64,000 nt of DNA from an uncultured Nitrososphaerota archaeon (GCA_963842885.1 CAWJIE010000002.1:1-64000), one strand, 5' to 3'. Numbered from the stretch's first letter, positions 17,405-45,590 are shown. Notes: generated from the letters alone by a model not told the origin. Translations and numbers: made by a program.

Positions 17405-17419
17405 TCGCAGGTCCAAGCC
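17405..17419 (+). repeat. Core D, copy 2
   Basis: Exact 15-mer. Confidence 0.95.
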
Positions 17420-17519
17420 TACATGTGAGCCCTACCCAAGAATCCCATGCCCCAGACGAATGTCTCTGAAACGACCTGGTTACGCTTTAATACTTTTGCC
17501 GACTCCATCTAATCTAGTA

Positions 17520-18029
17520 TTGGACAAGTACGAGCTCCGACTAATTCTATTGGCCTGTGCCGCGGTCTTGGTTACGGCAGCACTTATTTTTGGGCTGGGG
17601 TTGGTCAGCCCAACGTTTACTGATCTCAATCAGCCGCGTGAGACGCTGCTTATCGCCTCGAACGCCACACTGTTGGCCACTTGTCCTACTGACGGGACGC
17701 CTCCCTGCTGGTACATCAGCCTGTACGCTGCTAACTATGGCAATGTCGTGACCATCCTCAGTCAGATTCAGCTGAACGGGACTTCCTACATCCCCACCAA
17801 TGATTGGCCCATTACCTATCAGCTGAGCGAGTCGTCCAAGCAAGGCGTCGTCGTCGCTTCGCCCATATCTGTGCAGGTCAAGGTGGGACAGAACTTCTCG
17901 ACTCAGTTCTACCTGGACAGCTCGGGCGCTGCCGTGGGAGGAGAGAAGTTCACCAGTGGCCAACAGGTCGTCATTAATCTGCTGACCTCAGACGGAGATT
18001 CTTTTCCTTGCGAATTTACTTTGCCGTAA
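17520..18029 (+). CDS. Hypothetical secreted pilin-like beta-sandwich protein
   Basis: TTG after TTTAATAC TATA; N-terminal TM; N.G...I..I.LNG; FTSGQQVVINLLTSDG. Confidence 0.6.
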   Translation: MDKYELRLILLACAAVLVTAALIFGLGLVSPTFTDLNQPRETLLIASNATLLATCPTDGTPPCWYISLYAANYGNVVTILSQIQLNGTSYIPTNDWPITYQLSESSKQGVVVASPISVQVKVGQNFSTQFYLDSSGAAVGGEKFTSGQQVVINLLTSDGDSFPCEFTLP

Positions 18030-18071
18030 CGCCTCCCATCTCTTCTAAAGTCATGGCTTAACAGCCCATTT

Positions 18072-18086
18072 TCGCAGGTCCAAGCC
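18072..18086 (+). repeat. Core D, copy 3
   Basis: Exact 15-mer. Confidence 0.95.
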
Positions 18087-18195
18087 TACGTCCTTAGCAG
18101 CGTCTTACCATTTTCGTAGACTGAAGCAGGGGTCACTTGTCCCTGCCTGTCCACGAACGTGGTATTATATCTCCGAGCCAGCGTACCATGATATT

Positions 18196-18990
18196 ATGTC
18201 CGACGAGCCCGACGCTGCGAGCTTTGACAAGTCACCGGCGGAGCTGTTCGACGCATTAGGTCACCCCATTCGCATCAAGATGCTTCATGCCCTCGAAGAC
18301 GGCCCGTTAGGCTTCTCGGAGCTGAGGCGCAAGGTTGGTCTCGAAAGCAGCGGCCACCTTCAGTTCCACCTCGGGAAGCTTAGCGGCATGGTCAGAAGCG
18401 AACCAGATGGTAGCTATTCACTGACTGATGACGGGAAGGAGGCGCTGAGAGTTGTGTCCACCTCCAAGGGCACTGGCTCCGGAGAATCTCGCGACGACAG
18501 GAAGGTCCTCCTCAGCAGAACTATCCTGGCTGGCCTTGTCGCTGCGATGCTCCTACTGGCTGCAGTTGCTGTGGTTCAGGAATTCGAGGTTTCAGGCCAG
18601 CTAAGTCAGATCTCATCTCTTCAATCCCAGGTTTCCTCGTTGCAGGACCAACTGTATCACTACGTGATTCCCGATGACGTATGCGACAAGCTCGGGAGCG
18701 GCGACTGCTTCAAGGTACTCGCATCGCTGGTCATGGAGAACCCCAGGTTCATCACAGCCGAGAACGGCACCAACTATTCATATTATGGTCCTGGCGGCGA
18801 GGAATCTTCGATCATCAACGACTCGGTGGTTCGCACCATCAGCCTGGTCTTCAGTTCGAATCAGACGAACATGAATCTGTTCGCCTGGATCCCTCTGGGT
18901 GGAGGGATCGCTGGCTATGGAGGCTACTACGACATAGCGGATATGACCTTCTTCTTTTTCCCCTCCACCTTAAGCTCCCCTCCAACATGA
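18196..18990 (+). CDS. ArsR-type wHTH + TM + extracellular domain
   Basis: FDALGHPIRIKML...GFSELRRKVG..SSGHLQFHL; TM at about aa 110-127. Confidence 0.8.
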   Translation: MSDEPDAASFDKSPAELFDALGHPIRIKMLHALEDGPLGFSELRRKVGLESSGHLQFHLGKLSGMVRSEPDGSYSLTDDGKEALRVVSTSKGTGSGESRDDRKVLLSRTILAGLVAAMLLLAAVAVVQEFEVSGQLSQISSLQSQVSSLQDQLYHYVIPDDVCDKLGSGDCFKVLASLVMENPRFITAENGTNYSYYGPGGEESSIINDSVVRTISLVFSSNQTNMNLFAWIPLGGGIAGYGGYYDIADMTFFFFPSTLSSPPT

Positions 18991-19094
18991 GCTTCTGACC
19001 TAAAAGGACCAGATAAGCTCAGAGAGGACGGATGCGACTATCTGCCTGGTCCCACCGAAGTGATACCAATAGAGGGTTTTCTCCTCCAATCAAC

Positions 19095-19239
19095 CTATTG
19101 ATTTCAATAACTTAAAGATGATTAACCTATTTAGAGGTCGTCGTCGGTCAGGATTCCCGTCTTGGCCAGATGACAGGTCACAGGGAAGGCCCTGAAAGTA
19201 CAATTCTTGTTTGCCTAAGCTAGAGGTTGGGCAAACTTA
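19095..19239 (+). repeat. 145-bp composite A+B+C, copy 1
   Basis: Gapless match to 30803-30947 with 7 mismatches by hand count. Confidence 0.9.
19209..19236. repeat. Module C, dif-like 11-6-11 palindrome
   Basis: GTTTGCCTAAG-CTAGAG-GTTGGGCAAAC. Confidence 0.85.
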
Positions 19240-19531
19240 GAATCGTCCCAGCAAAACAATAAACAAACTTACTTTGCTATTAGACGGTTAATTCAGACAT
19301 ATCATTTGGCCGAACAGGTCTGCGACCATCTTGAACTATTCGAGTCCCTATCAGGAGCAGGTTTGGTTCTAGCCCTGGCGGCGGCTATGTCTCCATTTAT
19401 GCTGGGAAGGACCTTAAGTGGCCTCTCCGTTGCCATCAGAGCCTATTATGCAACCTTTTTGTCTAGGCCAATTGGAGTTGGTCTCTTGCCGAAGCAAAAG
19501 GATAAGATTACATCGCTCCTACATCTGGACC

Positions 19532-20188
19532 ATGGTCGATGGGCTTGTCGAAGTGTTCGTGGACGAGGCCGGTGACCTCGGCTTTGGCAGGCGGGCCACC
19601 CGATATTTCGTGGTGGCTTATGTGATCCCTTCCCAGCCCGACAGGGCCAGAGCGAACATCATCCATCTGATCAGGGCGTTGAGGCTTCACAACCGGGTAT
19701 CCATCAAGGAGTTCAAGCATAGCCGGGACTCGCCCAAGGTGCGCAGCAAGCTTCTTGAGACCATTGCGGCTTTGGATGCTAAGGTGGGGGTTGTAGTGGT
19801 CAACAAAGAGTCTGTTGAACTGGATCTCAGAGACAAGCCAGGGGTCCTTTACAACTATCTCTGTGCACATTACATCGTCTCAGGCCTGCTGAGTCTCCAT
19901 CCAAAGAAGGTCATAGTGAGGATGGATAGGAGGATGTCCGCGGAGGGCATCCAGAGTTTCAATCGATATTTCGCTAACAAGCTCTCTTGGAGGAGCATGG
20001 AGGCCGACCTGGCCGAGCCCGAAGTCGAAGTTCACCATGTTGACTCGGCCCGCGAGAAATGTATCCAGATAGCGGATTATGTCGCAGGGGCCTGTTTCAT
20101 GAAGTTCGAGCGCAATGATCCCCTGGAATACGACATGCTCAAGTCAAAGATCGTCTTCAATACAGGTTGGGGAATACAGAATTGGTGA
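19532..20188 (+). CDS. DUF3800 family (RNase H-like) protein
   Basis: VFVDEAGDLG...YFVVA...EFK...DS...CIQIADYVAG. Confidence 0.85.
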   Translation: MVDGLVEVFVDEAGDLGFGRRATRYFVVAYVIPSQPDRARANIIHLIRALRLHNRVSIKEFKHSRDSPKVRSKLLETIAALDAKVGVVVVNKESVELDLRDKPGVLYNYLCAHYIVSGLLSLHPKKVIVRMDRRMSAEGIQSFNRYFANKLSWRSMEADLAEPEVEVHHVDSAREKCIQIADYVAGACFMKFERNDPLEYDMLKSKIVFNTGWGIQNW

Positions 20189-20262
20189 GTCTTCCCCCCA
20201 ATCCCAGCCTGCATCCACAGGCATCATCTCAAGGGGAAGACCCCCGGTTGCCCGGGTTTTAC
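20189..20262 (-). ncRNA. Candidate structured RNA convergent on DUF3800
   Basis: Minus strand: CCCGG-GCAA-CCGGG (GNRA loop), then GTCTTCCCC...GGGGAAGAC stem extended by G-U pairs, enclosing GCCTG/CAGGC. Confidence 0.55.
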
Positions 20263-20526
20263 ACCAAGAATCCATATGAACTGGTTGTATTTCAGATTAA
20301 GTGAGCCCTTTCAAAGCGAAACATACCTCGAGGTCATTGTATGAGACGGTTAGAAGGTCAACTGTACTTCACATGAGACGCTTTGTATTCAAAAGTGCCT
20401 TTGTCTCAGTAGACTTGTGTTCGCTCGGCAGTGAGAAGTCTTCTGTTATGTTCCGTGCGCTTTAACTTGACCTTGGTTGGTCGTCGATGGCGACAGTAAA
20501 GGAACCAGCAGCGGCTGACGCTGGGA

Positions 20527-20940
20527 TCAACCTGTCGGACCGCCGCGGGGCGTAGCGTGGGTGAATGAGAGCGTGTGCTCGAAGACCCTTCTTCGGAACC
20601 TCTCGATGGCTTCTGCACGATATCCTTTCTCCCCCCAGCAGTGTTTCTCCTCAAGCACAAGCTCCCTGTAGTGTCCTGCCCAGAGGAGACGGAAAGCGGT
20701 CAGGATGGGACGCAGATGACCCTCTTCAAGTCGGCAGTCGCCTCCGGGCGGAGTCGACAGGAGGCGCATGGCGGCTGAAAGGTCCTCCCGCGTCAGGATG
20801 TCCCTCTGCCCAATCCTGTCGTCCACGTTCTTGAAAAGGGCCAATATCACCTGTCCAGCGCCGTCTTCCAGGTCGCGGTCATCGATGTCCTTGGCCACTC
20901 TGGTCAGTTCAGATCGGAAGTCCTCTAGTGTTGCGAGCAT
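20527..20940 (-). CDS. Hypothetical protein
   Basis: 137-aa ORF with GGAGG upstream; no recognised motif. Confidence 0.55.
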   Translation of the reverse strand: MLATLEDFRSELTRVAKDIDDRDLEDGAGQVILALFKNVDDRIGQRDILTREDLSAAMRLLSTPPGGDCRLEEGHLRPILTAFRLLWAGHYRELVLEEKHCWGEKGYRAEAIERFRRRVFEHTLSFTHATPRGGPTG

Positions 20941-21074
20941 TGAAGACTAGACCTCCCAGAGCATTCAAGAAAGCATGCGGGGTGGAGGGAGCTTCCTTAT
21001 CTTGGCCGTCGGCGTATCAGAGGGCAGCTACGGATTTAAGCCCAGGCCGACCGGCTCAGTGACAGGTCCGCTCG

Positions 21075-22829
21075 GTGAAGTTCTGTCCTCGATGCAACAA
21101 CCGCATGAAAGCCGTTCGCCCAGGCTCGTCCGTCTGCGTCAGATGCGGATACAGGGAAGACACGAAGAAGGCCGGAAAGGATTCCACGCTGGCAGGCAGC
21201 TTCCCATACGAGTCGATGAGGCCGCACCAGAAGGAGGTCATCGAACAGATAGGGGCGGCCCTGGGCTCGAAACGGTTCATAATACTCGAAGCGCCCGTGG
21301 GGTTCGGCAAGTCCGCCGTCGCGGCCACCTTCTGCAGACACTTGGCCTCGGCCCACGTGCTGACGTCGACGAAACAGCTGCAGGAGCAGTACGCCGCCGA
21401 CTTCGGCTTCCCTGTAGTCAAGGGGAGGTCCAACTTCCGGTGCCTGGTGCCCACGACCTCCGGGGCGTTCCTGCAGTGCGACAAGGGGAGGTGCAGGGCC
21501 GACTGGAAGCTCAAGGACTGCCCCCACTACCTCACCTTCGAAGAGTACGAGGAGCACAAGCTGGGAAGGTGCGGGGGTGATTCCAAGTGCGAGCGGCTCA
21601 AGGACGGTAGGCTCTGCCTCTACTACGACCAGAAGTGGTCCGGGTTCGATGCTCCCAGCACGGTCTACAACTACCCGTTCTTCTTCAGCGAGATGAAGCA
21701 CGCAGGGGACATACCACACCGACGCCTCCTCGTCTGCGACGAAGTCCACGACCTTGAGAAGCAGATAGTGAGCTTCGCATCCTTCGCCCTCGAGAGAAGC
21801 GCGCTACAGCCCTATCATGACAGGGTCAGGCACGGAGAGAAGCTCGTCATACCCGACATGGGCAGGGACAATCCGGCCTCCTGGCTGGACGTGCTCCTCC
21901 GCTTCAAGGAGGAGCTTGAGGAGTTCCTGGATTCAAGCCATGCAGGAGACGACGAACAGGGGAGGGTCGCCGTATGCATGGACATGGTCGACGCGATCAT
22001 GAGCTTCGCGGAGGACCTCAAGGCGAATCCCACTAACTGGGTGGTGAGCAGCCTGGAGAAGGACGGTGAAGGCTCTGTCGAAGAGGTCGGGTTCCAGCCG
22101 ATCCTCGTCGGCAAGTATACGGCACCCCTCTTCAGCGTGGCTGATTCCATACTCCTGATGTCAGCCACGGTCTTCTCGAAGGAGAGGCTGTGCGACGTGC
22201 TCGGAATAAGAGAGGAGGAGGCATGCTTCGTCCGAGTGTCCGAGTCGTCGTTTCCGGTGGAGAACAGGAAGATACGCGCCCTGAACGTGGCCCAGCTGAA
22301 CCAGGCGACCATGGAGGCTTCCCTTCCAATCATCTCGCGGGCGATCGACGAGATAATGAGCAATCACCCGGGAGAGAGGGGGGTGGTACACACCACCTCA
22401 TACAAACAGGTCAACTACATAATGGAGCATCTCTCGGAACCGAACAGGGATAGGCTGACTACAACCGAAGGGAACCCCGATAGGTCTGGACTCCTGCGAG
22501 GGCACGGCGTGAAGACCGGGTCTGTCTTGATCTCCCCGAGCCTCTTCCAAGGGGTGGACCTGAAGGACGAGCTGTCCCGGTTTCAGGTCATAGTCAAGGT
22601 TCCATACCCGGACCTTTCCGACAGGAGGACCGCGGTGTTGCTTCAGAGGAACCAGACCTGGTATGACTGGCAGACGGCGCTCCGGCTAGTGCAGACCTAC
22701 GGCAGGAGCGTAAGGAGCGAAACGGACTATGCGGTCACGTACGTGCTCGATTCGCACTTCATGAGTTTCCTTCGCATCCATCGAGACCTTTTCCCGGCAT
22801 ACTTCCTTGAAGCCCTGGTGGAACGATAA
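21075..22829 (+). CDS. DinG/XPD-type SF2 helicase with N-terminal Zn ribbon
   Basis: CPRC..CVRC; EAPVGFGKS; DEVH; MSAT; GVDL; QTYGRSVRS. Confidence 0.9.
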   Translation: MKFCPRCNNRMKAVRPGSSVCVRCGYREDTKKAGKDSTLAGSFPYESMRPHQKEVIEQIGAALGSKRFIILEAPVGFGKSAVAATFCRHLASAHVLTSTKQLQEQYAADFGFPVVKGRSNFRCLVPTTSGAFLQCDKGRCRADWKLKDCPHYLTFEEYEEHKLGRCGGDSKCERLKDGRLCLYYDQKWSGFDAPSTVYNYPFFFSEMKHAGDIPHRRLLVCDEVHDLEKQIVSFASFALERSALQPYHDRVRHGEKLVIPDMGRDNPASWLDVLLRFKEELEEFLDSSHAGDDEQGRVAVCMDMVDAIMSFAEDLKANPTNWVVSSLEKDGEGSVEEVGFQPILVGKYTAPLFSVADSILLMSATVFSKERLCDVLGIREEEACFVRVSESSFPVENRKIRALNVAQLNQATMEASLPIISRAIDEIMSNHPGERGVVHTTSYKQVNYIMEHLSEPNRDRLTTTEGNPDRSGLLRGHGVKTGSVLISPSLFQGVDLKDELSRFQVIVKVPYPDLSDRRTAVLLQRNQTWYDWQTALRLVQTYGRSVRSETDYAVTYVLDSHFMSFLRIHRDLFPAYFLEALVER

Positions 22830-22863
22830 AGCACATCGGAGATTGCAGACAGAAGGGCGATCC

Positions 22864-22926
22864 GGTTCTGGGACGTCTTCGGTTGCTGTCGGTACTGGCG
22901 CCATCGCAGAACAACCGACGACAACA
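22864..22926 (+). repeat. Module E, copy 2
   Basis: Matches 16105-16167. Confidence 0.8.
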
Positions 22927-22961
22927 TGGCCTAGCCACTCTAGGGGTTTCGCATATCGTCT

Positions 22962-22977
22962 TTCCAGCAGCAATAGA
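22962..22977 (+). repeat. Module F, copy 2
   Basis: TTCCAGCAGCAATAGA. Confidence 0.6.
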
Positions 22978-23039
22978 CACCGGACTGCGTGTTCCAAGGT
23001 CTAGAGATAATAGCCCAAGTGACTATACCTAGTAGCCAG

Positions 23040-23603: not shown

Positions 23604-23821
23604 GAAGGGCTTACATTGCGGTCACGGTTGTCGTGGTGGCTTTCGTTGTTTTCGCCTTCTTCGTTCCGTTCATATCTGAGACTGTAAACCTGTGCCCCAC
23701 CAACGCTGCGTCTTGCCCAGCGATGGACAGTAATTACCCTGTCACCGATTCCTTGACTTACCACTTCTTTCGTTTCGGAGTTGTGGCGTCCAGTTACTTT
23801 TACCGAATCTTAACATCGTGA
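23600..23821 (+). CDS. Small hypothetical membrane protein
   Basis: TTGA start/stop overlap; TM ending FFVP; Cys pair. Confidence 0.55.
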   Translation: MRRAYIAVTVVVVAFVVFAFFVPFISETVNLCPTNAASCPAMDSNYPVTDSLTYHFFRFGVVASSYFYRILTS

Positions 23822-23875
23822 GTTCTGCTTCGCATTAGAATCTGGTCGCTGTAGGGTGCTCTCCTTTCGTCTCAC

Positions 23876-23942
23876 TCAACCAACCTATTGTTCCAATAAC
23901 ACAATGATGAATCAAGTCAGCCCATTTTCGCAGGTCCAAGCC
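23876..23942 (+). repeat. Module A' + core D, copy 4 (23928-23942)
   Basis: CAACCTATTGTTCCAATAACACAATGATGAA...GTCAGCCCATTTTCGCAGGTCCAAGCC. Confidence 0.9.
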
Positions 23943-26618: not shown

Positions 26619-26650
26619 TAACCAAAAGTACCCATGAAAGGGCGATTCGT

Positions 26651-26713
26651 GTTTGTCTAAGCTACAGATTGGACAAACTTAAAACTGAGTCAGCCCATTC
26701 GCAGGTCCAAGCC
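26651..26713 (+). repeat. Module C (26651-26678) + core D, copy 5 (26699-26713)
   Basis: GTTTGTCTAAG-CTACAG-ATTGGACAAAC; D starts 21 nt after C ends. Confidence 0.9.
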
Positions 26714-26847
26714 CACGTCCAGCCAGGGGTTCCAGCCAGACTGGTTTCGAACCTTGTTGTCATAGCTAGTCATGAGTTACCTTGACATGAATTCACCGCA
26801 GGTGGGGATGCGAAGTACCTGCAGGTTAGGCTCGTGCACGCGATGCG

Positions 26848-27627
26848 TTATTCCCAGCGGAAGTAACGGATCGCTATGAATGAGAAGATAAGTGCGTAAA
26901 CGACCATCGTAAGTATAGTGGTAAGCGGCGGAGTGGCATTAAAGACCGAATAAAGTAGAACCCTAACGGCCGCGCCAGACGGAGAATAGTACATGATCGT
27001 CGCCAATGGCCCACCTACCGTGGCAGGCGGAACCCAGAGACCTGAAAGGAAGAGCAAGAGAAAGGTCAGCAACCCAGTCAAGCCGGTTGCGACCGACTGT
27101 GATGGAACCAGGGCCGCAACAACCAAGCCAAGAGAAAATATCACCGCAATCGAGAGAACGACCGAGAGAACAAAGTACGGAATACTTACGTCAAGTGGCG
27201 CCCCGAAGATCAATTCGCTTCCAAAGATGACAATCAAGATTGCCGCCAAGGCCAGCACGAGGTTGACGCTCAATTGGGCTCCGAGCAGTCTCGAGGGAGA
27301 CTCTGGAGTCGTTGAGACTCTTCGCAGCCACCCCATCTCCCGATACCTCACCAGGGTGACAGGCAAGATATAGATTCCCAGGAAAATAAATGCAAAAACC
27401 ATGATTATTGGAACGTAAAGGTCCAAGACTGTATAGCCTGTATTGGCCACGTTCCCTGGGTTTGCTATTCCGATGAGGCCGAATACTACGAGCAGGATGA
27501 TTGGAACACCGATCCCCACCCCCAATCCTGTTGGTTCTCGCAGGGCGAGCTTCCCCTCGACCTTGAGGAGTTCCGCAAAGTGGCCCCGTGATTCCTTCTC
27601 TTTCGATTCGCCCGGGACCGAGGTCAT
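26848..27627 (-). CDS. ABC-2 type permease
   Basis: YREMGWLRRVSTTP; six TMs; ends FRWE. Confidence 0.9.
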   Translation of the reverse strand: MTSVPGESKEKESRGHFAELLKVEGKLALREPTGLGVGIGVPIILLVVFGLIGIANPGNVANTGYTVLDLYVPIIMVFAFIFLGIYILPVTLVRYREMGWLRRVSTTPESPSRLLGAQLSVNLVLALAAILIVIFGSELIFGAPLDVSIPYFVLSVVLSIAVIFSLGLVVAALVPSQSVATGLTGLLTFLLLFLSGLWVPPATVGGPLATIMYYSPSGAAVRVLLYSVFNATPPLTTILTMVVYALIFSFIAIRYFRWE

Positions 27628-28602
27628 GGTTGGACCCCTCCTGAAGCACCGGACACGTCGTCCCTGGTCAGCTTCACGAACGCATCGTCAAGGTTTCCTC
27701 CTCTTGCTTCTATATCGGAGACGTGCACTCCAATTCTCGCGAGTGAGTTGATGACAGATGCTGCCTAGATCGCCCGTGCCTGTGACGGTTATGTATCTTT
27801 CTTTCCTCTCGATTTGATTCACACCAGGTATGGCATACAACGTCTTGTCGTCAACTGGCTGTGACGGGACAAAACGCACCCTGTTCCCTCCTGCCTGCGC
27901 TGCGATCGCTTCAGGCGTGTCCAGTGCTCTAAGCATACCATGGTTGATGAGGGCGAGGCGGTCACACAATCTTTCCGCCTCATCCATGTAGTGAGTGACC
28001 AGTATCACGGTGACGCCGCGTTCCCTCATGCGTTCTATGAGGGCCCATGTCTCACGCCTTGCTTCCGGATCTAGTCCCGTAGTCAACTCATCCAGTATGG
28101 CTACCTTAGGGTTTCCCACCAGGGCAAGCGCTATCGACAACCTCTGCTTCTGACCGCCGGACAACTTCTTGAAAACCGAATTCTCGATCTCCTTGATTCC
28201 CAGTGACTCGAGCAGTTCGTTCGTATCTAGTGGATTCGAGTAGAAAGAGGCGAAAAGTCTCACCGCCTCTCCTACCTTGAGGCGCGGAGGGAGCTGGCTT
28301 TCCTGCAGTTGAACACCGACAAATTCTCTTATCCTGTTCCTATCCTTCTGCGGAGAAAGCCCATAGACACTGATTAATCCTGAATCCGGAACGCGAAGTC
28401 CAGAGATACACTCCACCGTGGTGGTCTTGCCAGCACCGTTAGGTCCGATGATTCCAAAAATCTCTCCTTCCTGTATCGAGAAGGAAACGTCGTTGACTGC
28501 AACGAATTCCCCATACCTTTTGACAAGATGTTGAACCGTGACCACCGATTCAGATTCCGTGTGCAAGCCCCCCGATGAATCAGGAACTTGAGGACGACTC
28601 AT
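27624..28602 (-). CDS. ABC multidrug-type ATP-binding protein (C-terminal frameshift)
   Basis: GPNGAGKT, LSGGQKQR, ILDELTTGLD, THYMDEAE. Confidence 0.9.
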
Positions 28603-28843
28603 TAGATCACATCAACGGACGAACAGGCCCCACGATAGAATTGAGCTGCTCACCGGCGAAGGCCGGCCTTTCAACACTGGTTCCACCCGAGTCCTTCCAT
28701 CGTCCAGCTACCCTGCCATCATCTACGAGATAAGGATGACTAGCTATCGAAACTTGGAGCACCACCCAAGCCTGCCGACCCTCAGCCGCTAGCTAGGGCA
28801 TTTAACTCGTCATGAAACCCTACGCATTAGTCGACACATTTCT

Positions 28844-28858
28844 TCGCAGGTCCAAGCC
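28844..28858 (+). repeat. Core D, copy 6
   Basis: Exact 15-mer. Confidence 0.95.
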
Positions 28859-29247: not shown

Positions 29248-29283
29248 AGACGAAGGAAGTCAGCCCATTCGCAGGTCCAAGCC
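29239..29283 (+). repeat. Partial A' + core D, copy 7 (29269-29283)
   Basis: ATAACACAAAGACGAA...GTCAGCCCATTCGCAGGTCCAAGCC. Confidence 0.9.
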
Positions 29284-30754: not shown

Positions 30755-30777
30755 CCATTTCGCAGCCCCAAGCCCAC
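30755..30777 (+). repeat. Degenerate core D
   Basis: CCATTTCGCAGCCCCAAGCCCAC. Confidence 0.7.
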
Positions 30778-32716: not shown

Positions 32717-32826
32717 GTTTGTCTAAGGAACCTCTTCAATTGCCAAAAACAGCGGCTCTTCGTGTTTGCCTAACCTACAGGTTGGGCAGACTCAAGACCG
32801 AGTCAGCCCGTTCGCAGGTCCAAGCC
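32717..32826 (+). repeat. Half-site (32717) + module C (32764-32791) + core D, copy 8 (32812-32826)
   Basis: GTTTGTCTAAG 47 nt before GTTTGCCTAAC-CTACAG-GTTGGGCAGAC. Confidence 0.9.
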
Positions 32827-33426: not shown

Positions 33427-33495
33427 TCAATTAACCTACCGTTTTCAATAACACAGAGATGAACGAGGTCAGGCCAATTTTCGCAGGTCCAAGCC
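33427..33495 (+). repeat. Module A' + core D, copy 9 (33481-33495)
   Basis: TCAATTAACCTACCGTTTTCAATAACACAGAGATGAA...TCGCAGGTCCAAGCC. Confidence 0.9.
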
Positions 33496-33587
33496 CAGGC
33501 CTCTATACTGGGAGATGGATGATTGTTCAAGGACGCAAGATTGTTCCACTTAGTTTATAGCGCCAATCGAAGGCGCGAGGGACTACA

Positions 33588-33905: not shown

Positions 33906-34000
33906 AGTAAACGGTCGTCAAACCCCGTTCTTTTTGCATCCTAGGAAAGCTGGGTACCGGATGGTCTGTGTCGCATTCATCTTCCACTGTCAGCACATTC

Positions 34001-34085
34001 TCGCAGGTCCAAGCCCGCGTCCTGACTGAATTCGTCCAATTATCAAATTGTCCTCAATAACATAAAGATGATTAACCTATTGAGG
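34001..34085 (+). repeat. Core D, copy 10 (34001-34015) + module A (34037-34085)
   Basis: Exact 15-mer, then CAATTATCAAATTG...CAATAACATAAAGATGATTAACCTATTGAGG. Confidence 0.9.
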
Positions 34086-38568: not shown

Positions 38569-40191
38569 ATGGCGTCAAATTCGTCTTCACTCCCCGTGAT
38601 CGTGCTGAAAGGGGGGTCGACGGAGGCAAAGGGAAGGGAGGCCCTGCAGAACAACATAAACGCCGCCAAGCTGGTGGCGGAGCTGGTCGAGTCCTCACTG
38701 GGCCCGAGGGGGATGGACAAGATGCTCGTCGACAGCATGGGGGACGTCACCATAACCAACGACGGGGCCACGATGCTCAAGCAGATGGACATACAGCATC
38801 CAGGCGCCAAGATGCTGGTCGAGATCGCCAAGGCGACGGACAGCGAGGTGGGGGACGGCACCACCTCCGCGGTCATCCTGGCCGGCTCGCTCTTGGAGAA
38901 GGCCGAGGAGCTCCTCGACAAGGACGTCCATCCCAACATCATCGTTGACGGCTACACCCTGGCTTCGGAGAAGGCGCTGGAAATCCTGGCAAAGATCGCC
39001 ATCAAGGTGGACCCGACCAACAAGGAGTGGCTCGTCAAGGTATCTAAGACGAGCCTGGCTTCGAAGCTTGTGTCCCAGGAGAGCGAAGAGCTTTCGAACA
39101 TCGTAGTGGACGCCGTCCTCCATGTGGTGGAGAAGTCCGGAGAGAAGCTGAAGGTGGACATCGACAACGTCAAGGTCGAGAAGAAGCCCGGGAAGTCCCT
39201 CAGCGACACTTCTCTCATCAATGGGATCATCATAGACAAGGAGGTCGTCCACGCGGGCATGCCGAAGAAGGTGGAGGGGGCGAAGATCGCGCTTCTCAAC
39301 TCGCCTCTTGAGATCGAGAAGACCGAGATGAGCGCCGAGATCAGGATATCCGACTCCACCAAGATGAAGTCCTTCCTCGACGAAGAGACGAGGATGCTCA
39401 AGGGGATGGTGGACAAGGTCGCCGAAGTAGGCGCGACCGTAGTATTCTTGCAGAAGGGCATCGACGACATCGCCCAGCACTATCTCGCGAAGGCCGGGAT
39501 AATGGCGGTCCGCCGCGTGAAGGAGAGCGACATGACCCGCCTCGCCAAGGCCACGGGAGGGAGGATGGTCACCAACCTGAGCGAGCTGACAGGCGACGAC
39601 CTGGGCTACGCCGGGCTGGTGGAGGAGAGGAAGGTAGAGCAGGACAAGTGGGTCTTCGTCGAGGGCTGCAAGAACCCCAAGGCCGTCAGCATACTCCTGA
39701 GGGGAGGCACCCAGAGGGTGGTGGACGAAGCTGAAAGGGCCGTCCACGACGCGATAATGGTGGTCAAGGACGTGATAGAGAAGCCCTCCGTCGTCTGCGG
39801 AGGAGGGGCCCCGGAGGCCGAGATCGCCCATCGCATCAGGAGGTGGACTCACACGCTGTCAGGGAGGGAGCAGCTGGCAGCGCAGGCCTTCGCCGACGCC
39901 CTGGAGGTCGTCCCGCTGACCCTGGCGTCGAACGCGGGCATGGACCCCATCGATACGCAGGTGGACCTTCGGGCGGCGCACGCGAAGGACAGGACCTGGG
40001 CCGGGATCAACGTGTTCGACGGGAAGGTCGGCGACATGGAGAAGGAGGAGGTCTTCGAGCCCACGGTGGTGAAGTCCCAGATCATAAAGTCGGCGACTGA
40101 GGCCGCGGTCATGATCCTGAGGATCGACGACGTCATCGCTTCGAAGGGAATGGGGAGGGAGGGCGGAGGCCCGCCCCCTGGCGGCATGTAG
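38569..40191 (+). CDS. ths: Thermosome (group II chaperonin) subunit
   Basis: SLGPRGMDKML, ITNDGATML, GDGTTS, GGGAPE, ILRIDDVI. Confidence 0.97.
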   Translation: MASNSSSLPVIVLKGGSTEAKGREALQNNINAAKLVAELVESSLGPRGMDKMLVDSMGDVTITNDGATMLKQMDIQHPGAKMLVEIAKATDSEVGDGTTSAVILAGSLLEKAEELLDKDVHPNIIVDGYTLASEKALEILAKIAIKVDPTNKEWLVKVSKTSLASKLVSQESEELSNIVVDAVLHVVEKSGEKLKVDIDNVKVEKKPGKSLSDTSLINGIIIDKEVVHAGMPKKVEGAKIALLNSPLEIEKTEMSAEIRISDSTKMKSFLDEETRMLKGMVDKVAEVGATVVFLQKGIDDIAQHYLAKAGIMAVRRVKESDMTRLAKATGGRMVTNLSELTGDDLGYAGLVEERKVEQDKWVFVEGCKNPKAVSILLRGGTQRVVDEAERAVHDAIMVVKDVIEKPSVVCGGGAPEAEIAHRIRRWTHTLSGREQLAAQAFADALEVVPLTLASNAGMDPIDTQVDLRAAHAKDRTWAGINVFDGKVGDMEKEEVFEPTVVKSQIIKSATEAAVMILRIDDVIASKGMGREGGGPPPGGM

Positions 40192-40337
40192 GGAAGTTCC
40201 TTTCACGTTTCTCCGGATCTGTCAAGGCCCAGCGTCTGCTGGCCTAGGAACTGGAGAAAATCCCGGTGCGTCTGCCAACCTTTTTAATGTAACTCGTTCT
40301 AATTCATAGGATGTCGGACATCTTCTGGTGACCCGTT

Positions 40338-40658
40338 TTGTCCTCTAGGAGGGAAACGTTCCCCGGCGACCAGGCCGCGCAGACGGAGCGCTGCCCACGT
40401 TGCGGCAGGCGACCCATGGTCATCGACTCTGCCAAGGGAGAGATGGTCTGCAGCTTCTGCGGATTCGTCGTCAAGGAACGCATCGAGGAGACGGGTCCGG
40501 AGTGGCGCGCGTTCTCCAAGGAGGAGAAGGATGACAGGAGCAGGGTGGGGATCCCCGCTTCTCTTGCCATGCACGACATGGGCCTGGCTACGGTCATCGG
40601 CTCGGAGAACAGGGATGCCTCTGGAAGAAACCTGACATGTGCGTCAGGACGTGCGTAA
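40338..40658 (+). pseudogene. tfb: Transcription initiation factor B, N-terminal fragment
   Basis: CPRC..CSFCG..GPEWRAF..RSRVG.P..MHDMGLAT; stops before the cyclin repeats. Confidence 0.85.
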
Positions 40659-40832
40659 GGTCGTATTCGTACGCCTACGACCTGAACCCCCTGAACCTCG
40701 TGGACCTCGTCGGTGACGCGAGGATCCAGCTCAACCAGAGGGTATCGGCGCCCCCCTGAGGGGACGCGGCCGAACAGAGAAACCACGAAGTATTTGAGAG
40801 CGGGCGTGCCAGCCGCTGGAGAGTAAGCCCCG

Positions 40833-42335
40833 ATGGACGAGTCGCCCGCGGAAGTCAGCAGAGAGATTCCGGTCCAGGAGGGCCTTTCGCCTCAAGCCGT
40901 GCGCGGAATGGCCGAGTTCGTCAAGGCGCACTATCTGGATGCGCGCCGAGGACGGGCCGGCCGCCCGTATCAGGAGGGCTGGTCCGAGGCTGAGAAGGCC
41001 GTGCAGCTGTCTTGGAAGGTATGGTCGCCCCCGAACAGGACGCCAGCCGGCGCGTTGGCCCTTGAGACCTATGCTCGCCTGTCCATAGGGCCGCGCTCCG
41101 TCTCCATCTCGTTCACGGACCTGGACGCCAGGGATGCGGAGGGAGTCAGAACTTGCAGGCGAGTGGCCGACGACGTCGAGGCCCTCGCCACCTCCTTCCT
41201 GACGATCGCCAAGACGACCAGCCTATACTTCATCTTCTCCAGCGGGGCTGTTCAGGCCATACGTGACGTCCCGGGCGCGTCCGACGGGATAAGGAGGGGA
41301 GTCATGAAGAGGATCTTCACCGGGAACATGGTGAACCTCTACCTGATCATCATGGCGGCCAGCTTCGGGCTCTTCTTCCTGCTGGGCGATATGGCGATCT
41401 TCGCCGTCATTGGAATCCAGCTCGTAGCGCTCTTCTTCTCGGACCGGCTGGCCCTCGGGGTCGGAAGGGTCCGTCCTACGGCAGAGAGACCTAAGGTGAC
41501 CGTCGTCAGCGTCCCCGTCTCCCCCGAGACGAAGAAGTGGATCACGAAGCACCCGAAGGGCATCGTGCCGGACACCACGGAGCGGCTCGAAGAGGCGCTC
41601 TCTCTCGACGCTCGGGATGAATCCCAGGCGACGGTCGCGGTTGAGGAGGCGCTCGCGCGCTCGGGATTCAAGTCGCCGCACGGGGAGGTCAAGATAGTCA
41701 CCAGGGACGTCTACGGCCTCGTCAAGGGGGTGGCCGATCGCTTCCGGCTCCCGGTCCCGAAGATCGTCATCATGAACAACATCGCCGCCAACGCGGCCGC
41801 GACGGGCTTCTCCCCACGCCGATCCGCGATAAGCATCACCGCGGGGTCCCTGGAGGACCTGGACGACCCCGAGTTCTCCGCGGTCGTGGGCCACGAAATG
41901 GGCCACATCAAGGGGAGGGATTCGCCCATACTCTTCTGCGTGACCTTCCTCCTCTACGTCGGGGGGTTCTACCTGTGGCTCCCGGTGCTGCTCTACCTGG
42001 GGCTCTTCTACTATCTGGTGGTCTTCGCCATCATCTTTGGCGTGGGGAAGGTCCTGGAGACGAGGGCCGACACGGAATCGGTCGTGAACCTGGGTCAGCC
42101 CGGCGTCTTGGCCGCCGCCCTCACCAACATCGGGTTCCGCCAGCTCTATTTCGAACGCTACTCCCGAGGCCTGAAGCTCCTCGACTGGCTGAGGTTCGAC
42201 CCGCACCCTCCGATCTACTTCAGGGTACAGAGGCTCTCCCGTCTCGCGTCGACAGGAGCCAACATCAGGCACACCTTTATCGTCTCCGTCAGGGATTGCA
42301 CCCTGGGCTTCCTTCGGGCCCTCCTTGGGCGCTAG
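40833..42335 (+). CDS. M48 (HtpX-like) membrane metalloprotease with N-terminal extension
   Basis: NAAATG, VGHEMGH, ETRAD, HPPIYFRV. Confidence 0.85.
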   Translation: MDESPAEVSREIPVQEGLSPQAVRGMAEFVKAHYLDARRGRAGRPYQEGWSEAEKAVQLSWKVWSPPNRTPAGALALETYARLSIGPRSVSISFTDLDARDAEGVRTCRRVADDVEALATSFLTIAKTTSLYFIFSSGAVQAIRDVPGASDGIRRGVMKRIFTGNMVNLYLIIMAASFGLFFLLGDMAIFAVIGIQLVALFFSDRLALGVGRVRPTAERPKVTVVSVPVSPETKKWITKHPKGIVPDTTERLEEALSLDARDESQATVAVEEALARSGFKSPHGEVKIVTRDVYGLVKGVADRFRLPVPKIVIMNNIAANAAATGFSPRRSAISITAGSLEDLDDPEFSAVVGHEMGHIKGRDSPILFCVTFLLYVGGFYLWLPVLLYLGLFYYLVVFAIIFGVGKVLETRADTESVVNLGQPGVLAAALTNIGFRQLYFERYSRGLKLLDWLRFDPHPPIYFRVQRLSRLASTGANIRHTFIVSVRDCTLGFLRALLGR

Positions 42336-42470
42336 GGCGCCGGCTCATCTTCCCTGTGGAGAGGACCCCACCGTGTTACCGTTAGGACGCGGACTTGCAA
42401 GCCATCGCAGCAGCTCCGGACAGCACCCCATGACCCGCCAATAATCTATTCACGCGTCAGCGGGACAACG

Positions 42471-42506
42471 TTTATAATTAGAGCATCTATGTACAATTGT
42501 ACATAG
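42471..42506 (+). promoter_or_regulatory. TATA box + perfect 20-bp palindromic operator
   Basis: TTTATAATTA at 42471; CTATGTACAATTGTACATAG at 42487-42506. Confidence 0.75.
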
Positions 42507-42520
42507 GAGATTAGTTCGCT

Positions 42521-43292
42521 GTGAACAGCACTCGAACCGGGGTCAGGAGGAACAGAAACGCCCTAGTGACAAGGGGCCTCATCGCAGCCGTCGAATCTCT
42601 CGAAAGGCGGGGCGTGGAGCCGACCTTCAGCGAGATCCTGGCCGATCTCAGGTCGAGCGGGATCCTCTCCAACCATAGGTCGTTGAGAACCTACCTTGAT
42701 TCGCTCGTGCTTTCGGGAATCCTGAAAGTGAAAAAGGAGGAAGCGAGGCGGAAGAACGTGAGGCCGAAGGAGATTCTATTCTCTCACCCACGGACGCCCC
42801 CATGTCGAAGCCGGAGACGGCGCTTTGCTCTTCCATGGGCTCAACTGGACCATCCCGGTGAAGTCCTCGATCAAGCTGATGACGGACGAAGAAGGGGTGG
42901 CGAGGGCCCGGCTCGTAGACGGGACACTGTATGCCTCCCTTGAGGACATGGTGGTTGCTAACCTGGCGGCGAAGAGGAGGGCCGCCCTCGAAAGGGCGCT
43001 CCCCCTGTGCGCGGCGCTCCTGGCCACGTGCAGCTTCGACCCAGTCTATCTGGACAGGAGGGCCAAAGAGATGGGCGTCGGAGGGCTGGTGAAGGAGCTG
43101 CTCGATGAAATAGGCTACATCGTGTCCTCCCCCAGACCAGAGGTCGAGGACATCAGGACCCTCTACGCCGTAAGGAGACGGCTCGGGTCCCTTCGCAGGA
43201 ACGTCGCCCTTCATGACCAGGAACCGCGCTGGGACCTGCTGTCGCCTCATGAGTTGGTGGATGTGGCCGGGAAGCAGCTGGGGTTGGAGTGA
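42521..43292 (+). CDS. wHTH-containing putative antitoxin, frameshifted near 42780
   Basis: PTFSEIL...SLRTYLDSL..SGIL; continues in ORF 42825-43292. Confidence 0.6.
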
Positions 43293-43978
43293 AGATGAAG
43301 CCCTCCCGCCCTCCCGCCAGAGTGTGGATAGGCGTCCTGGGCCGCATCCTGCCCGTCCTGTCGAGGGGAGAGGCCAACGACGTGGTGCTCTTCGGCTCTC
43401 AGGCCATGAGCGTCTACACTCCCAGGGCCCTGGCGAGCAAGGACATGGACCTCATCGTCCCGGGTATGACCCTTCGAGTCATGAGGGAGCTCTGCGACGA
43501 ACTCGCCAAGGTGGCGGTGGGGAGGCCCAGCTACGACTACCTTTCATCCGAGTACTCGGGGAGGGAGTATCCCATCTTCCATGTCTACTTCAGGCACGAC
43601 AGCGGGTATCCGATGGTCGTCGAAATCTTCCTGAACTTCCTGGGCTTCGAATCCAAGAGGCTTGCGCCCTTCCTCACCTTCAGGGAAAGGTGGGGGGCGA
43701 GGGTCCAGGTCCCGACGCCGGAGGCAATCATAGGAACGAGGTTGTCCTTCAGGCCCCCCGAGCGGATCACGCCCTTCAACGCGAGGAGGTTGTCACGTTT
43801 CATAACGGGGATGGGCAGGGGGGTCGACTGGGCTAAGGTGAACTCGTTCGTCGACGCCTTCGAGCTCAGGGCCGTAGCCACGGAGAACCTGCGGGCGCTT
43901 GCCTCAAAGCGAATCTTCATCGCCGGGACGTCCCATTTCCTCAAGGGGCAACCGGGAGACGCGCCGAACTCCGCATGA
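43289..43978 (+). CDS. Nucleotidyltransferase (DUF6036/AbiEii-like), putative toxin
   Basis: VLFGSQAM...SKDMDL...VPTPEAII; GTGA overlap with upstream gene. Confidence 0.7.
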   Translation: MKMKPSRPPARVWIGVLGRILPVLSRGEANDVVLFGSQAMSVYTPRALASKDMDLIVPGMTLRVMRELCDELAKVAVGRPSYDYLSSEYSGREYPIFHVYFRHDSGYPMVVEIFLNFLGFESKRLAPFLTFRERWGARVQVPTPEAIIGTRLSFRPPERITPFNARRLSRFITGMGRGVDWAKVNSFVDAFELRAVATENLRALASKRIFIAGTSHFLKGQPGDAPNSA

Positions 43979-44010
43979 CCGTTCGTTGCGGGTAGCCACG
44001 GGCCCGCCAC

Positions 44011-44505
44011 TTGTTGGCCCCATGGATAGCATTATGCATCGATGGGGTTAAATCCGACCTAGATTTCTGCGCTTGTGACATGGCAGCCACGCAGAGCGGG
44101 CTCCTAACCAGCCTGATAGAACTCCTGACGCCGACGGCAGCGCTCCTTACGATCGTCATCGAACTGTGGAACATGACGTCCGTAACCATAAGGCTCTTTT
44201 CGGTCATCGACCTCGTCATACTTGTCTTCGTAGCTCTCATCTGCTTCATGGAGCTGAAGTCTGAAAGGCTTGGAGACCGAGGCCTCAGCCTATCCGCGTT
44301 CTTCCTCCTGTGGCCCTTCCTCGTCCTTCTTGGTCTGGCGGTGGCTGCCCCGGTGATGTCGCTCCTGGGGATCGTCTTCATTCCCTGGAGGACGAATACG
44401 AGGGATTGGTGGGCGGGCATGGGGATCGCCTTGGCCGGGATAGTGGTGACCGGCCTGCTGGCCTGGAGGTTGGTCCTGCTGACCAAGCCGCGTCTTCGAA
44501 CCTGA
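44011..44505 (+). CDS. Hypothetical 4-TM protein; start uncertain
   Basis: Hydrophobic ORF. Confidence 0.55.
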   Translation: MLAPWIALCIDGVKSDLDFCACDMAATQSGLLTSLIELLTPTAALLTIVIELWNMTSVTIRLFSVIDLVILVFVALICFMELKSERLGDRGLSLSAFFLLWPFLVLLGLAVAAPVMSLLGIVFIPWRTNTRDWWAGMGIALAGIVVTGLLAWRLVLLTKPRLRT

Positions 44506-44569
44506 AATAGTGCTCCCACAACCCTGACCATGCTCCTCGATCGCGCTCGTGCTCTCACGTCGGACGCGG

Positions 44570-44649
44570 CGTGGCCAAGGTCGCATCCATCTGCACGAGG
44601 GCGCTGGGCGAAGGTCCGCTGCGGGTCTGAGCCCTCGGGACTACTGTGG
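44570..44649 (+). pseudogene. 3' remnant of a PAP2 phosphatase paralog
   Basis: VAKVASICTRALGEGPLRV* versus VAKVTSIFTRALGEGPLRL* at 52105-52165. Confidence 0.75.
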
Positions 44650-44779
44650 ACCCTCCGAACGATGTAAAGGGGCCACCCTGCGGCGGCGGCGGCCAACCTC
44701 GCCCGATGAGGATCCAGACGTCTTCGCCCCCCTCCCCAAAGCTCTAATAGAGTGAGCCCGCCAACGAGATGGGAAGGCC

Positions 44780-45001
44780 ATGTCGTCTGAATTCGAAAAG
44801 TTGGTGAAGAGGCTGGAGAAGCTGGAGACGAGAGTGCAGCTCGCGGAGGAGAAGCAGTCCGTGGCGGTGGAAGGGGCTCTCGGGGACGAGGAGACGAAGC
44901 TTAAGGCCGGGGAGAAGAAGAGGGTGGACCAGCTGGAGGCCAAGGTGAAAGAGCTGGAAGCGAAGCTAAAGGCCCTAGAAAAGAAGCGTGCGAAGAAGTA
45001 G
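44780..45001 (+). CDS. Small coiled-coil protein
   Basis: Heptad E/K/L pattern. Confidence 0.65.
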   Translation: MSSEFEKLVKRLEKLETRVQLAEEKQSVAVEGALGDEETKLKAGEKKRVDQLEAKVKELEAKLKALEKKRAKK

Positions 45002-45052
45002 GCCTCATCCCTTCCGGCAGGAAGCACGACGGCGGAACCATAACGAGACTAG

Positions 45053-45166
45053 GTTTGCCTAAGGAGCCACTTCAAGACCTAAAATGAATGACTAGTAGTG
45101 TTTGTCTAAGCTACAGCTTGGGCAAACTAGAAATCGGACCAGCCCATTTCTTCGCAGGTCCAAGCC
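45053..45166 (+). repeat. Half-site (45053) + module C (45100-45127) + core D, copy 11 (45152-45166)
   Basis: GTTTGCCTAAG 47 nt before GTTTGTCTAAG-CTACAG-CTTGGGCAAAC. Confidence 0.9.
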
Positions 45167-45211
45167 CACGCCCGCGCTAAACTTGGAACCAGTCACGGCC
45201 ACAAAACAGAT

Positions 45212-45469
45212 TCAAGGTGATTCCTCTTGGTCTTCTTTCTTGTTCAGCTCTTTGAACATCAGAGAATTGTAGTAGGCACCAAGGAGGCCTACAACTAGCC
45301 CACAACCGCCGATCAACAGGTCCAGTGGCAATACGAAGTAATGGGGAGAGAAGAGGTAGTATGTGACCAGGGGATATCCGATTGCGAGCAAGCAAAGCAC
45401 CACTCCGACGATACCCATTATGTTGTTCCGCCTAAAATGACGAACACGAGGATATCTCTCGGCCCCCAC
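45212..45469 (-). CDS. Small 2-TM hypothetical protein
   Basis: Only plausible ORF between D copies 11 and 12. Confidence 0.6.
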   Translation of the reverse strand: MGAERYPRVRHFRRNNIMGIVGVVLCLLAIGYPLVTYYLFSPHYFVLPLDLLIGGCGLVVGLLGAYYNSLMFKELNKKEDQEESP

Positions 45470-45523
45470 TACCGTAAACCCCCGGTGTCAAGAACCATCA
45501 CTATCCTAATGAGGCTTTCCAGT

Positions 45524-45590
45524 TCAATTATCAAATTGTTTTCAATAACATAGATATGAATAAGCCAGCCCGTTTTCGCAGGTCCAAGCC
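45524..45590 (+). repeat. Module A' + core D, copy 12 (45576-45590)
   Basis: TCAATTATCAAATTGTTTTCAATAACATAGATATGAA...TCGCAGGTCCAAGCC. Confidence 0.9.

Follow-up and report, generated by a model that had tools for sequence, protein, structure and literature searches.

Exchangeable gene cassettes with an integron-like layout in an uncultured archaeal genus

A stretch of 64,000 nt from an uncultured Nitrososphaerota archaeon (GCA_963842885.1 CAWJIE010000002.1:1-64000), referred to here as the window, carries an array of genes punctuated by a recurrent 16-nt core, TTCGCAGGTCCAAGCC. The window is the first 64 kb of contig C2 of the genome under study (G000; 2.03 Mb, 11 contigs) and contains archaeal markers, namely a thermosome, an HTH_10 regulator and DUF7347 regulators. 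We report that the intervals between consecutive cores are exchangeable gene cassettes with an integron-like layout, and that they are not integrons. The cores of the window all point the same way, most short intervals hold one gene, whole units recur in other genomes beside unrelated neighbours, and breaks in homology gather at the cores.

Core sites, boxes and one-gene units

When up to 3 mismatches were allowed, TTCGCAGGTCCAAGCC matched the window 15 times, 15/15 on the plus strand. In dinucleotide shuffles, matches averaged 0.71 and numbered at most 3, and 0/100 shuffles reached 15. Fourteen of the matches form an array spanning 15562-48803 (12 exact, one with 1 mismatch at 34000 and one with 2 mismatches at 30759; Table 1), with start-to-start spacings of 1842, 667, 5856, 2771, 2145, 425, 1491, 2052, 669, 520, 11151, 424 and 3213 bp; the fifteenth, with 3 mismatches at 56028, is without the flanking consensus described below. 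An initial annotation of this DNA, in which the 16-mer is called ‘D’ and coordinates are higher by 1 than ours, had quoted D-to-D intervals of 667, 425, 669, 520, 424 and 2771 bp, and all six are exact.

Alignment on the core revealed a conserved box of ~35 nt, consisting of (A)GTCAGCCCA, 0-3 extra T, the core and YACGTC, beyond which conservation drops sharply. The extra T number 0, 1, 2 and 3 in 34, 8, 12 and 3 of 57 copies, respectively, and because this variable run beside the core would shift any reading frame, the box is non-coding. A coding reading was dropped for this reason, as was that of a C/D-box small RNA; copies of one of the modules that accompany the box (module C, see below) likewise differ by a 1-nt indel. 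An origin from a tRNA end was also rejected, the best local match to the 31 tRNA genes scoring only 12 out of 36. At gathering thresholds, Rfam returned 0 matches over the window, and among 21 exact 16-mer matches in viral contigs 0/21 had the box flanks.

Genome-wide, G000 holds 58 core copies with at most 1 mismatch (38 forward, 20 reverse; 0 for a reversed-pattern control) and 66 with at most 2, clustered in islands on contigs C2, C3, C4, C5, C7, C8, C9 and C10. Among 36 genomes of the order, copies are numerous in G000 (58), G011 (44), G012 (60) and G013 (24), all four from one genus of the Conexivisphaerales. Two further genomes, G014 and G010, have 1 copy each and the remaining 30 have 0; G014, which belongs to the same genus, carries about six copies of a variant core, TTCGCAGCCCCAAGCC. 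A search for the core followed by YACG in public genome contigs returned 45 stretches, all in three assemblies titled Conexivisphaerales or Nitrososphaerota archaeon, and metagenome contigs at JGI and ENA contributed 118 further stretches containing the core. Across the DNA examined of the four core-rich genomes, 98/179 cores (at most 2 mismatches) are exact, in a setting where shared genes are 77-88% identical.

We cut the G000 genome and the fetched arrays of G011-G013 at their cores. Neighbouring cores no more than 8 kb apart are co-oriented in 98 pairs and opposed in 3, and the resulting 141 co-oriented units have a median length of 1017 bp. Exactly one open reading frame (ORF) of at least 60 aa is present in 48/50 units of 350-800 bp, and in 33/50 of these the longest ORF beats shuffles at p<=0.05. 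The five short intervals of the window conform to this pattern, as the initial annotation had proposed: each has one ORF longer than in shuffles (p 0 to 0.06, where p is the share of 100 dinucleotide shuffles with a longest ORF at least as long). The 2771-bp interval indeed holds one large ORF of 834 aa (24073-26577, plus strand). Together, these six ORFs fill ~49-90% of their units.

Genes occur in both orientations. The short-unit ORFs lie on the plus strand in 3/5 cases and on the minus strand in 2/5; single-ORF units of 350-800 bp have the gene on the core's strand in 30 cases and opposite in 18; and all ORFs of at least 100 aa inside units of the four genomes split 130 to 100 between the box strand and the other. 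The suggestion that the units are orientation-independent thus held up. Genes thus face without regard to the direction of the box, which speaks against the box acting as a promoter or terminator.

It had also been suggested that some units carry their own TATA element near 17486 and 33553. TATA-like hexamers are present at 17486 and 33554, each 34 nt before a candidate start. Hexamers of this type are enriched between -45 and -26 of 1161 well-delimited G000 starts (25-36 per 5-nt bin, compared with 3-9 at -80 to -56), a set that replaced the first ATGs of long ORFs, whose promoter profile was uninformative. The strict pattern yielded no such hexamer in the other three short units (28843, 32811 and 45151), and minus-strand unit genes have only the end module or the box itself as upstream room. 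With a TATA-like box at the right distance in 2/5 short units, self-expression of the cassette genes is no more than plausible.

Exchange of units between genomes

The initial annotation had regarded the intervals as unit modules and proposed searching metagenomes for homology that ends at D with different neighbors. This is what we observed: whole units recur elsewhere at 78-90% identity, with 400-nt flanks at noise level (49-62%). The unit 26698-28858, which encodes an ABC exporter, is 88% identical from core to core to a unit of G012 (contig C112), while its 400-nt flanks align at 58-62%, which equals aligner noise. Three more core-to-core pairs show 90.5%, 88% and 78% identity inside and 49-61% outside. 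With peat metagenomes included, units recur at 78-95% identity with unrelated flanks; the 520-bp unit, for instance, is multi-copy in G012, where some copies are cut by contig ends, and is complete at 94% in a metagenome contig (L162) with other neighbors. Taking all external DNA fetched and counting distinct internal ends of alignments of at least 250 nt at 70% identity or more, 9/34 homology ends fell within 15 nt of a core, compared with 1.9% expected.

Individual junctions illustrate these exchanges. A 3998-nt contig from peat metagenome run X1 joins window 16104-17420, 1373 nt of other DNA and window 29266-30448, with both breaks at cores; 1373 nt is the core-to-core length of an insertion sequence (IS) unit of G000 at C3:1351-2724, a match of length only, the inserted DNA itself not being seen. 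In another metagenome contig (L153), a ~100-nt ORF-less unit of module C stands where the window has its 424-bp unit. In G013, a nucleotidyltransferase pair (window 16238-17422) is followed by a core-like site, 35 nt and then the promoter of an M48 peptidase (window 40777). As the pair there directly precedes the M48 promoter, window 17422-40776, a 23-kb block with ten cores, is absent from G013. The left break of this block is a core and its right junction has none; its contents include an MFS transporter, an AbiEii/AbiEi pair and a thermosome paralogue. G014 has a variant core ~70 nt from its M48 peptidase gene. At the junctions, sequence left of the core travels with the left cassette and sequence right of the core with the right one; every cassette therefore has a site of its own at its end, comparable to the attC that closes an integron cassette.

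Short read joints (15580->28838, 26717->28837, back 23948->19087 and 32739->26650) were considered as deletions or circles and rejected, their shorter sides being <40 nt and matching repeats. We obtained no clean empty site for the isolated core at C5:35268, where the gene content of relatives differs. Neighboring cores of the same variant, considered as a clue to crossovers, amounted to 1 pair, which is not above chance.

Candidate agents of exchange

We put about even confidence in the following reading: the intervals are cassettes of a lineage-specific array system in one Conexivisphaerales genus, moved by site-specific recombination at the box, with the enzyme supplied in trans. A site-specific process is favored because 98/179 cores are exact 16-mers, directionality is 98 to 3 and each unit has half a box at either end. 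Read 5' to 3' on the box strand, a cassette would open with the right-hand portion of one box (YACGTC...) and continue with a gene, as a rule a single one, which may face either way and often has a promoter of its own. An end module (A, B hairpin, C or other) may come next, and GTCAGCCCA, 0-3 extra T and the invariant 16-nt core of the following box would close the series. Such cassettes would be joined head to tail in co-oriented arrays and be gained, lost and swapped via recombination inside the box. The likeliest agent would be a sequence-specific recombinase supplied in trans from a gene outside the arrays, which cuts out whatever unit lies between two direct boxes and can put it back at any box of the genome. 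Such a system would imply an enzymatic, site-specific break, circular intermediates and genes that are expressed on their own.

Several observations weigh against this reading. Some intervals do not amount to single cassettes: 18071-23927 contains several genes and, at 19071-19275, a boundary of modules A and B that has no box, and 34000-45151 contains about ten genes. The segment 34016-40776 has a right end without a core. Homologues (65-80%) of a helicase gene, the 834-aa gene and the 105-aa gene lie on relatives' contigs without a nearby box. By inspection, the sub-repeats in the box consensus are direct rather than inverted (GTC..AGCCCA twice), and the box is without the inverted arms usual for core sites of tyrosine or serine recombinases.

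The searches for an enzyme count on the same side. PF00589 has no match in the window, and its four matches in the genome are not beside boxes; a Pfam scan of 44 + 13 window ORFs revealed no recombinase. A tyrosine recombinase lies inside one G011 array, and its G000 counterpart is only a 24%-identical pseudogene match. Using tblastn, five G000 tyrosine recombinases and an IS110 protein gave three matches in 445 kb of relatives' DNA (two to tyrosine recombinases at ~26% identity, one to a second IS110 lineage); the same six plus the G011 recombinase had no match in 249 kb of metagenome DNA around boxes. G000 encodes one IS200/IS605 element, five lone TnpB genes and one serine recombinase, all away from the arrays, and no SSV-type integrase was found in it. 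In wider scans, Pfam on 147 ORFs from other G000 arrays, 150 from relatives' arrays and 70 from metagenome contigs identified the tyrosine recombinase of the G011 array and one rve transposase, the remaining annotated ORFs being transporters, surface proteins, regulators and toxin-antitoxin genes; NCBIfam found no recombinase among 23 unknown proteins; and core-like sites within 20 kb of each tyrosine recombinase belonged only to known arrays. Phylogenetic profiles placed two tyrosine-recombinase families in G000, G011 and G012 at 26-41% identity, and also in genera without the box.

Two further points on this side concern recombination by homology. A contig 100% identical to the window diverges inside module A and not at a core, and housekeeping DNA compared between G000 and G012 jumps from 80% to 97% identity, abruptly at L060 ~6057 (G000:C3 ~194056), a switch that points to recent homologous exchange between lineages and from which we take such exchange to be common. 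Both fit a rival explanation that we consider possible, if rather doubtful, in which the box and its modules are modular intergenic repeats without a dedicated enzyme and turn over by homologous recombination. Relatives' DNA would pair at two boxes or modules and replace what lies between, and direct boxes would recombine with each other, deleting units. The lack of any recombinase found at the arrays agrees with this, as does the behavior of the end modules. Ahead of the box, three modules recur at set distances: A, B (a hairpin of ~11 bp) and C. In G000, 12 of the copies of A have a core 21-26 nt downstream and 8 of those of B have one at 19-23 nt, a fixed core spacing not being applicable to C; 11/25 copies of A, 7/20 of B and 28/37 of C are dispersed alone, with no core within 400 nt. 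Moreover, both cores flanking the ABC cassette in G012 are of the same variant, as import of a whole piece would give, a single case that 696/2000 permutations reach. Homologous recombination alone nonetheless does not explain why neighboring cores agree in direction by 98 to 3 across kilobases, or how arrays arose in which almost every gene is set off by a box, and 98/179 exact 16-mers despite 12-23% gene divergence would need selection or continual homogenization. Unlike repetitive extragenic palindromic (REP) sequences, the box is not a palindrome, and the single Y1 transposase of G000 is part of an ordinary IS200/IS605 element without similarity to the modules, two further points against this rival.

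It is also conceivable, although we judge it unlikely, that the arrays are an archaeal integron analogue, in which a non-palindromic, double-stranded 16-bp box is recombined in trans by a non-IntI enzyme. That enzyme could be an RNA-guided recombinase of the IS110/IS1111 type, relatives of which insert here into the modules next to the core, or a wholly new one. If this were true, any gene between two direct boxes would be a mobile cassette, and because cassettes would bring their own promoters in either orientation, the array would be a gene store without a common promoter. G000 contains an IS110/IS1111-family element encoding a 363-aa DEDD transposase (PF01548 + PF02371), with two intact copies and one frameshifted copy (Table 1). 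All three (3/3) share one insertion point and one orientation in module C (...TTTCCAGCA | GCAATAGATA...), at least 14 nt upstream of a core. Subterminal inverted repeats are present in the element, and within its non-coding end stands the 9-mer TTTCCAGCA, identical to the target's left half and a candidate guide of a bridge or seek RNA (for bridge RNA work, see PMC11208160 and PMC11208158). A second IS110 lineage with 41% identity, on a G012 contig (L001 1995-2437), interrupts module A just before a core. No IS was found to interrupt a core, the targets being modules C and A, and these insertions fit the cassette reading and the repeat reading alike. In the part of Siddiquee et al. 2024 (PMC11187229) drawn on here, IS1111 elements target attC sites (ISKpn4, ISPst6) or REP sequences (ISPa11).

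Box orientation changes in blocks along contigs, with at least 7 switches on four contigs, and one of these, on C4, occurs close to where cumulative GC skew peaks and ~3 kb away from a cdc6/orc1 gene. This arrangement, along with the lack of an identified enzyme, would suit a box that is mainly a site for a chromatin, insulator, replication or segregation protein, or a strand-oriented motif, frequent in hypervariable islands by chance; breakpoints would then fall at the box merely because it is the sole conserved sequence there. We consider this improbable. The number of switches and the weak GC skew argue against a clean link to replication, and an account of box orientation by replication strand was rejected on these grounds. 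In addition, boxes cluster in few islands instead of being spread along the chromosome, whole units travel with half a box at each end, and box counts range from ~6 to 60 across genomes of one genus.

That the arrays are an assembly artefact, with repeats mis-joined in a metagenome-assembled genome, appears very improbable. The repeats do break relatives' assemblies, where units stop at contig ends, and the first 14 kb of the window, with 42% G+C and broken ORFs, suggest that the contig may hold a bad join. The same boxes and units nevertheless occur in four assemblies, in 118 independent metagenome stretches and in Logan contigs of 4 runs from 3 studies. As to window 1-14000 itself, its G+C content compares with ~58% for the genome and 52-63% for the rest of the window, the array beginning right after it, and it contains bacterial-looking ORF fragments (a Liv-type ABC permease and ATPase in pieces, DegV, and a pyrroloquinoline quinone propeller in pieces). 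The segment could stem from a chimeric join, represent foreign DNA of low coverage that bears indel errors, or be a foreign island in decay.

Cassette contents and relation to known systems

Putative membrane segments were read by eye from the translations in 4/5 short-unit proteins (17404, 28843, 32811 and 45151). The 17404 and 32811 proteins have a predicted N-terminal membrane anchor, the 28843 product is predicted to be a small multi-pass membrane protein, and the 45151 product a small two-helix membrane protein. Among 5.8 billion proteins, the 169-aa form of the 17404 protein has a single relative, at 48% identity; the 105-aa protein of the 520-bp unit belongs to a family of 144 relatives, mostly of exactly 105 aa, from Nitrososphaerota and Bathyarchaeia records. 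The 834-aa gene has a core-flanked paralogue at C3:176048-179491 (75% nucleotide identity) and a weak one at 52434-54554 (706 aa), which resembles archaeal Flg_new_2 surface proteins (Atlas score 0.96, a lead only). An Atlas search with the 451-aa polytopic membrane protein found nothing, and a recurrent 506-aa array protein is a secreted repeat protein with a C-terminal anchor. We considered the large recurrent array proteins (506-aa, 451-aa and the 706-aa paralogue) as DNA enzymes and excluded them, as they are secreted or surface proteins or polytopic membrane proteins.

DUF7347 winged-helix regulators are among the commonest cassettes (window 18196-18990; paralogues at L065:18370-19152, L047, L089, L090, L112, L129, L157 and L159). 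The copies compared have a core ahead of the gene and on its strand, ~125 nt away in the window copy, and in four copies DNA-level similarity begins at the core or within ~10 nt of it. The island also contains toxin-antitoxin-like pairs: a DUF6036 nucleotidyltransferase with a 167-aa partner (16253-17381), and AbiEii with AbiEi (36769-38198). Two segments of the window are duplicated 16.6 kb apart (34103-34402 / 50727-51026, 96%; 34670-34782 / 51294-51406, 93%); one comes after the core at 34000 and the other overlaps the start of a PAP2 gene region. Elsewhere in G000, opposite arrays meet head-on at C2:103894 (+) and 104611 (-), separated by 717 nt, the final end modules of the two being similar, and a DpnII-like restriction enzyme with an N6/N4 methylase is encoded at C4:338855-341129 (L066), between arrays of opposite direction and a few kb from cdc6/orc1.

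Table 1 Positions of cores, cassette genes, promoter-like hexamers and associated elements. Positions refer to the window unless a contig of G000 is named.
Feature	Position	Strand	Remarks
Core 1	15562..15577	+	exact
Core 2	17404..17419	+	exact; G013 homology stops here
Core 3	18071..18086	+	exact; DNA homology of DUF7347 winged-helix-turn-helix gene family begins at core
Core 4	23927..23942	+	exact; module A before
Core 5	26698-26713	+	in stretch of module B hairpin, box and core, 26632..26717
Core 6	28843..28858	+	exact
Core 7	29268..29283	+	exact
Core 8, variant TTCGCAGCCCCAAGCC	30759..30774	+	2 mismatches; form found in G014
Core 9	32811..32826	+	exact; module B hairpin before
Core 10	33480..33495	+	exact; module A before
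Core 11	34000..34015	+	1 mismatch; metagenome contigs diverge just past core
Core 12	45151..45166	+	exact; module B hairpin before
Core 13	45575..45590	+	exact; module A before
Core 14	48788..48803	+	exact; last of array
ORF, 667-bp unit (17404)	17460/17520-18029	+	189 aa from ATG 17460, 169 aa from TTG 17520; p=0.00
ORF, 425-bp unit (28843)	28927-29247	-	106 aa, 86 aa from ATG 29187; p=0.03
ORF, 669-bp unit (32811)	32849-33394	+	181 aa; p=0.00
ORF, 520-bp unit (33480)	33588-33905	+	105 aa; p=0.06
ORF, 424-bp unit (45151)	45212-45469	-	85 aa, 68 aa from ATG 45418; p=0.04
TATA-like hexamer TTTAAT	17486..17491	+	34 nt upstream of TTG 17520
TATA-like hexamer TTTATA	33554..33559	+	34 nt upstream of ATG 33588
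Two-gene ABC-2 exporter cassette	26848..28602	-	unit 26698-28858
Polytopic membrane protein cassette, 451 aa	29317..30672	-	95% identical in G012 beside core; in 4/4 peat runs compared
ORF-less A-B composite without core	19071..19275	+	metagenome contig 100% identical as far as 19111 has module A and core here instead
Module C copy	22956..22981	+	more at 14745, 23968, 26597; target of G000 IS110/IS1111 element
IS110/IS1111 copy	G000:C3:189229-190519		L060
IS110/IS1111 copy	G000:C7:18996-20294		L071
IS110/IS1111 copy	G000:C3:1403-2709		L057

The arrays share much with integrons and with clusters of attC sites lacking integron integrases (CALINs). Units are arranged head to tail, mostly with one gene each, a site at each unit's 3' end and co-oriented sites; they are common to genomes in which their neighbors differ; some are ORF-less; arrays occur without an adjacent integrase; and IS1111-type elements are targeted to cassette ends. 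Archaeal integrons have been described (Ghaly et al. 2022, PMC9668308), and in the part of that work drawn on here integron cassettes are generally co-oriented. In the present system, by contrast, genes lie in both orientations (130 vs 100), TATA-like boxes stand in 2/5 short units, and there is no common-promoter layout. The site also differs, being a non-palindromic, invariant 16-nt core in a ~35-nt box and not a folded attC (R''/L''/L'/R'). Single-stranded DNA folds of 120 nt around the 14 window sites gave z-scores of -0.8 to +1.0 for 11 and of -1.7 to -2.1 for the 3 with a module B hairpin; the core lies outside that hairpin and was never in a helix in the 14 folds. Since only module B sites fold above shuffles and the core stays unpaired, there is no attC-like structure. 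The GTTRRRY core of integrons is likewise absent, TTCGCAGGTCCAAGCC being the invariant and GTTGGGC occurring only inside the module B hairpin of some sites. No IntI was found, which by itself is not excluding as CALINs also lack one, and the box system is restricted to one genus. Because the defining attC and IntI features were looked for and are lacking, the arrays should not be filed as integrons.

Other known systems account for parts of the picture. As in IS1111/IS110 elements, insertion is at a fixed position and orientation within a repeat, here modules C and A and not the core; these elements explain the IS copies but not the movement of other cassettes. Modular intergenic repeats, such as REP sequences and bacterial interspersed mosaic elements (BIMEs) with their REP-associated tyrosine transposases (RAYTs), pneumococcal BOX elements, and Neisseria intergenic mosaic elements (NIMEs) with dRS3, are short boxes combined in mosaics, intergenic, present in dozens of copies and targeted by recombinases of the IS110/Piv type. 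The short boxes described here resemble them in forming mosaics (A, B, C and core), in being intergenic, in numbering dozens of copies and in serving as targets for elements of the IS110 type. They differ in that the core is not palindromic, is one-way by 98 to 3, bounds gene-sized moving units and is associated with no RAYT-like gene.

The pdif modules of Acinetobacter plasmids are Xer-dependent and flanked by 28-bp sites with inverted arms in alternating orientation. They, too, are discrete modules bounded by short sites, often containing a single gene or a toxin-antitoxin pair, and found in varied contexts. The 28-bp Xer/dif site, with two inverted 11-bp arms and a 6-bp spacer, is not present here, and the sites described all point one way. 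Attachment sites derived from tRNA genes do not fit either, given the lack of a tRNA-end match and units without an integrase. Miniature inverted-repeat transposable elements (MITEs) differ in that our units carry genes and have no terminal inverted repeats or target-site duplications at their ends.

The integron is the classic bacterial means of gathering single genes and rearranging them. The literature on integrons that our searches returned covers canonical systems only, and for archaea, the part of PMC9668308 drawn on here reports only canonical attC/IntI integrons. A literature search on the core string gave nothing relevant, and by title and abstract none of the work returned on mobile genetic elements of Conexivisphaerales concerned the box. 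In a thaumarchaeal genus of peat and soil, we describe an integron layout with a different site, both gene orientations, promoter-like boxes and no integron integrase. Should an enzyme drive the exchange, there would be a new system of site-specific recombination to discover, with a defined and directly testable 16-bp site. If it instead reflects homologous recombination at a selfish or domesticated repeat, then the arrays would be a clear case from nature of repeats that organize a flexible stock of genes for transporters, surface proteins, toxin-antitoxin pairs and regulators. Under both readings, the one-gene units amount to an inventory of accessory genes exchanged among these uncultured archaea.

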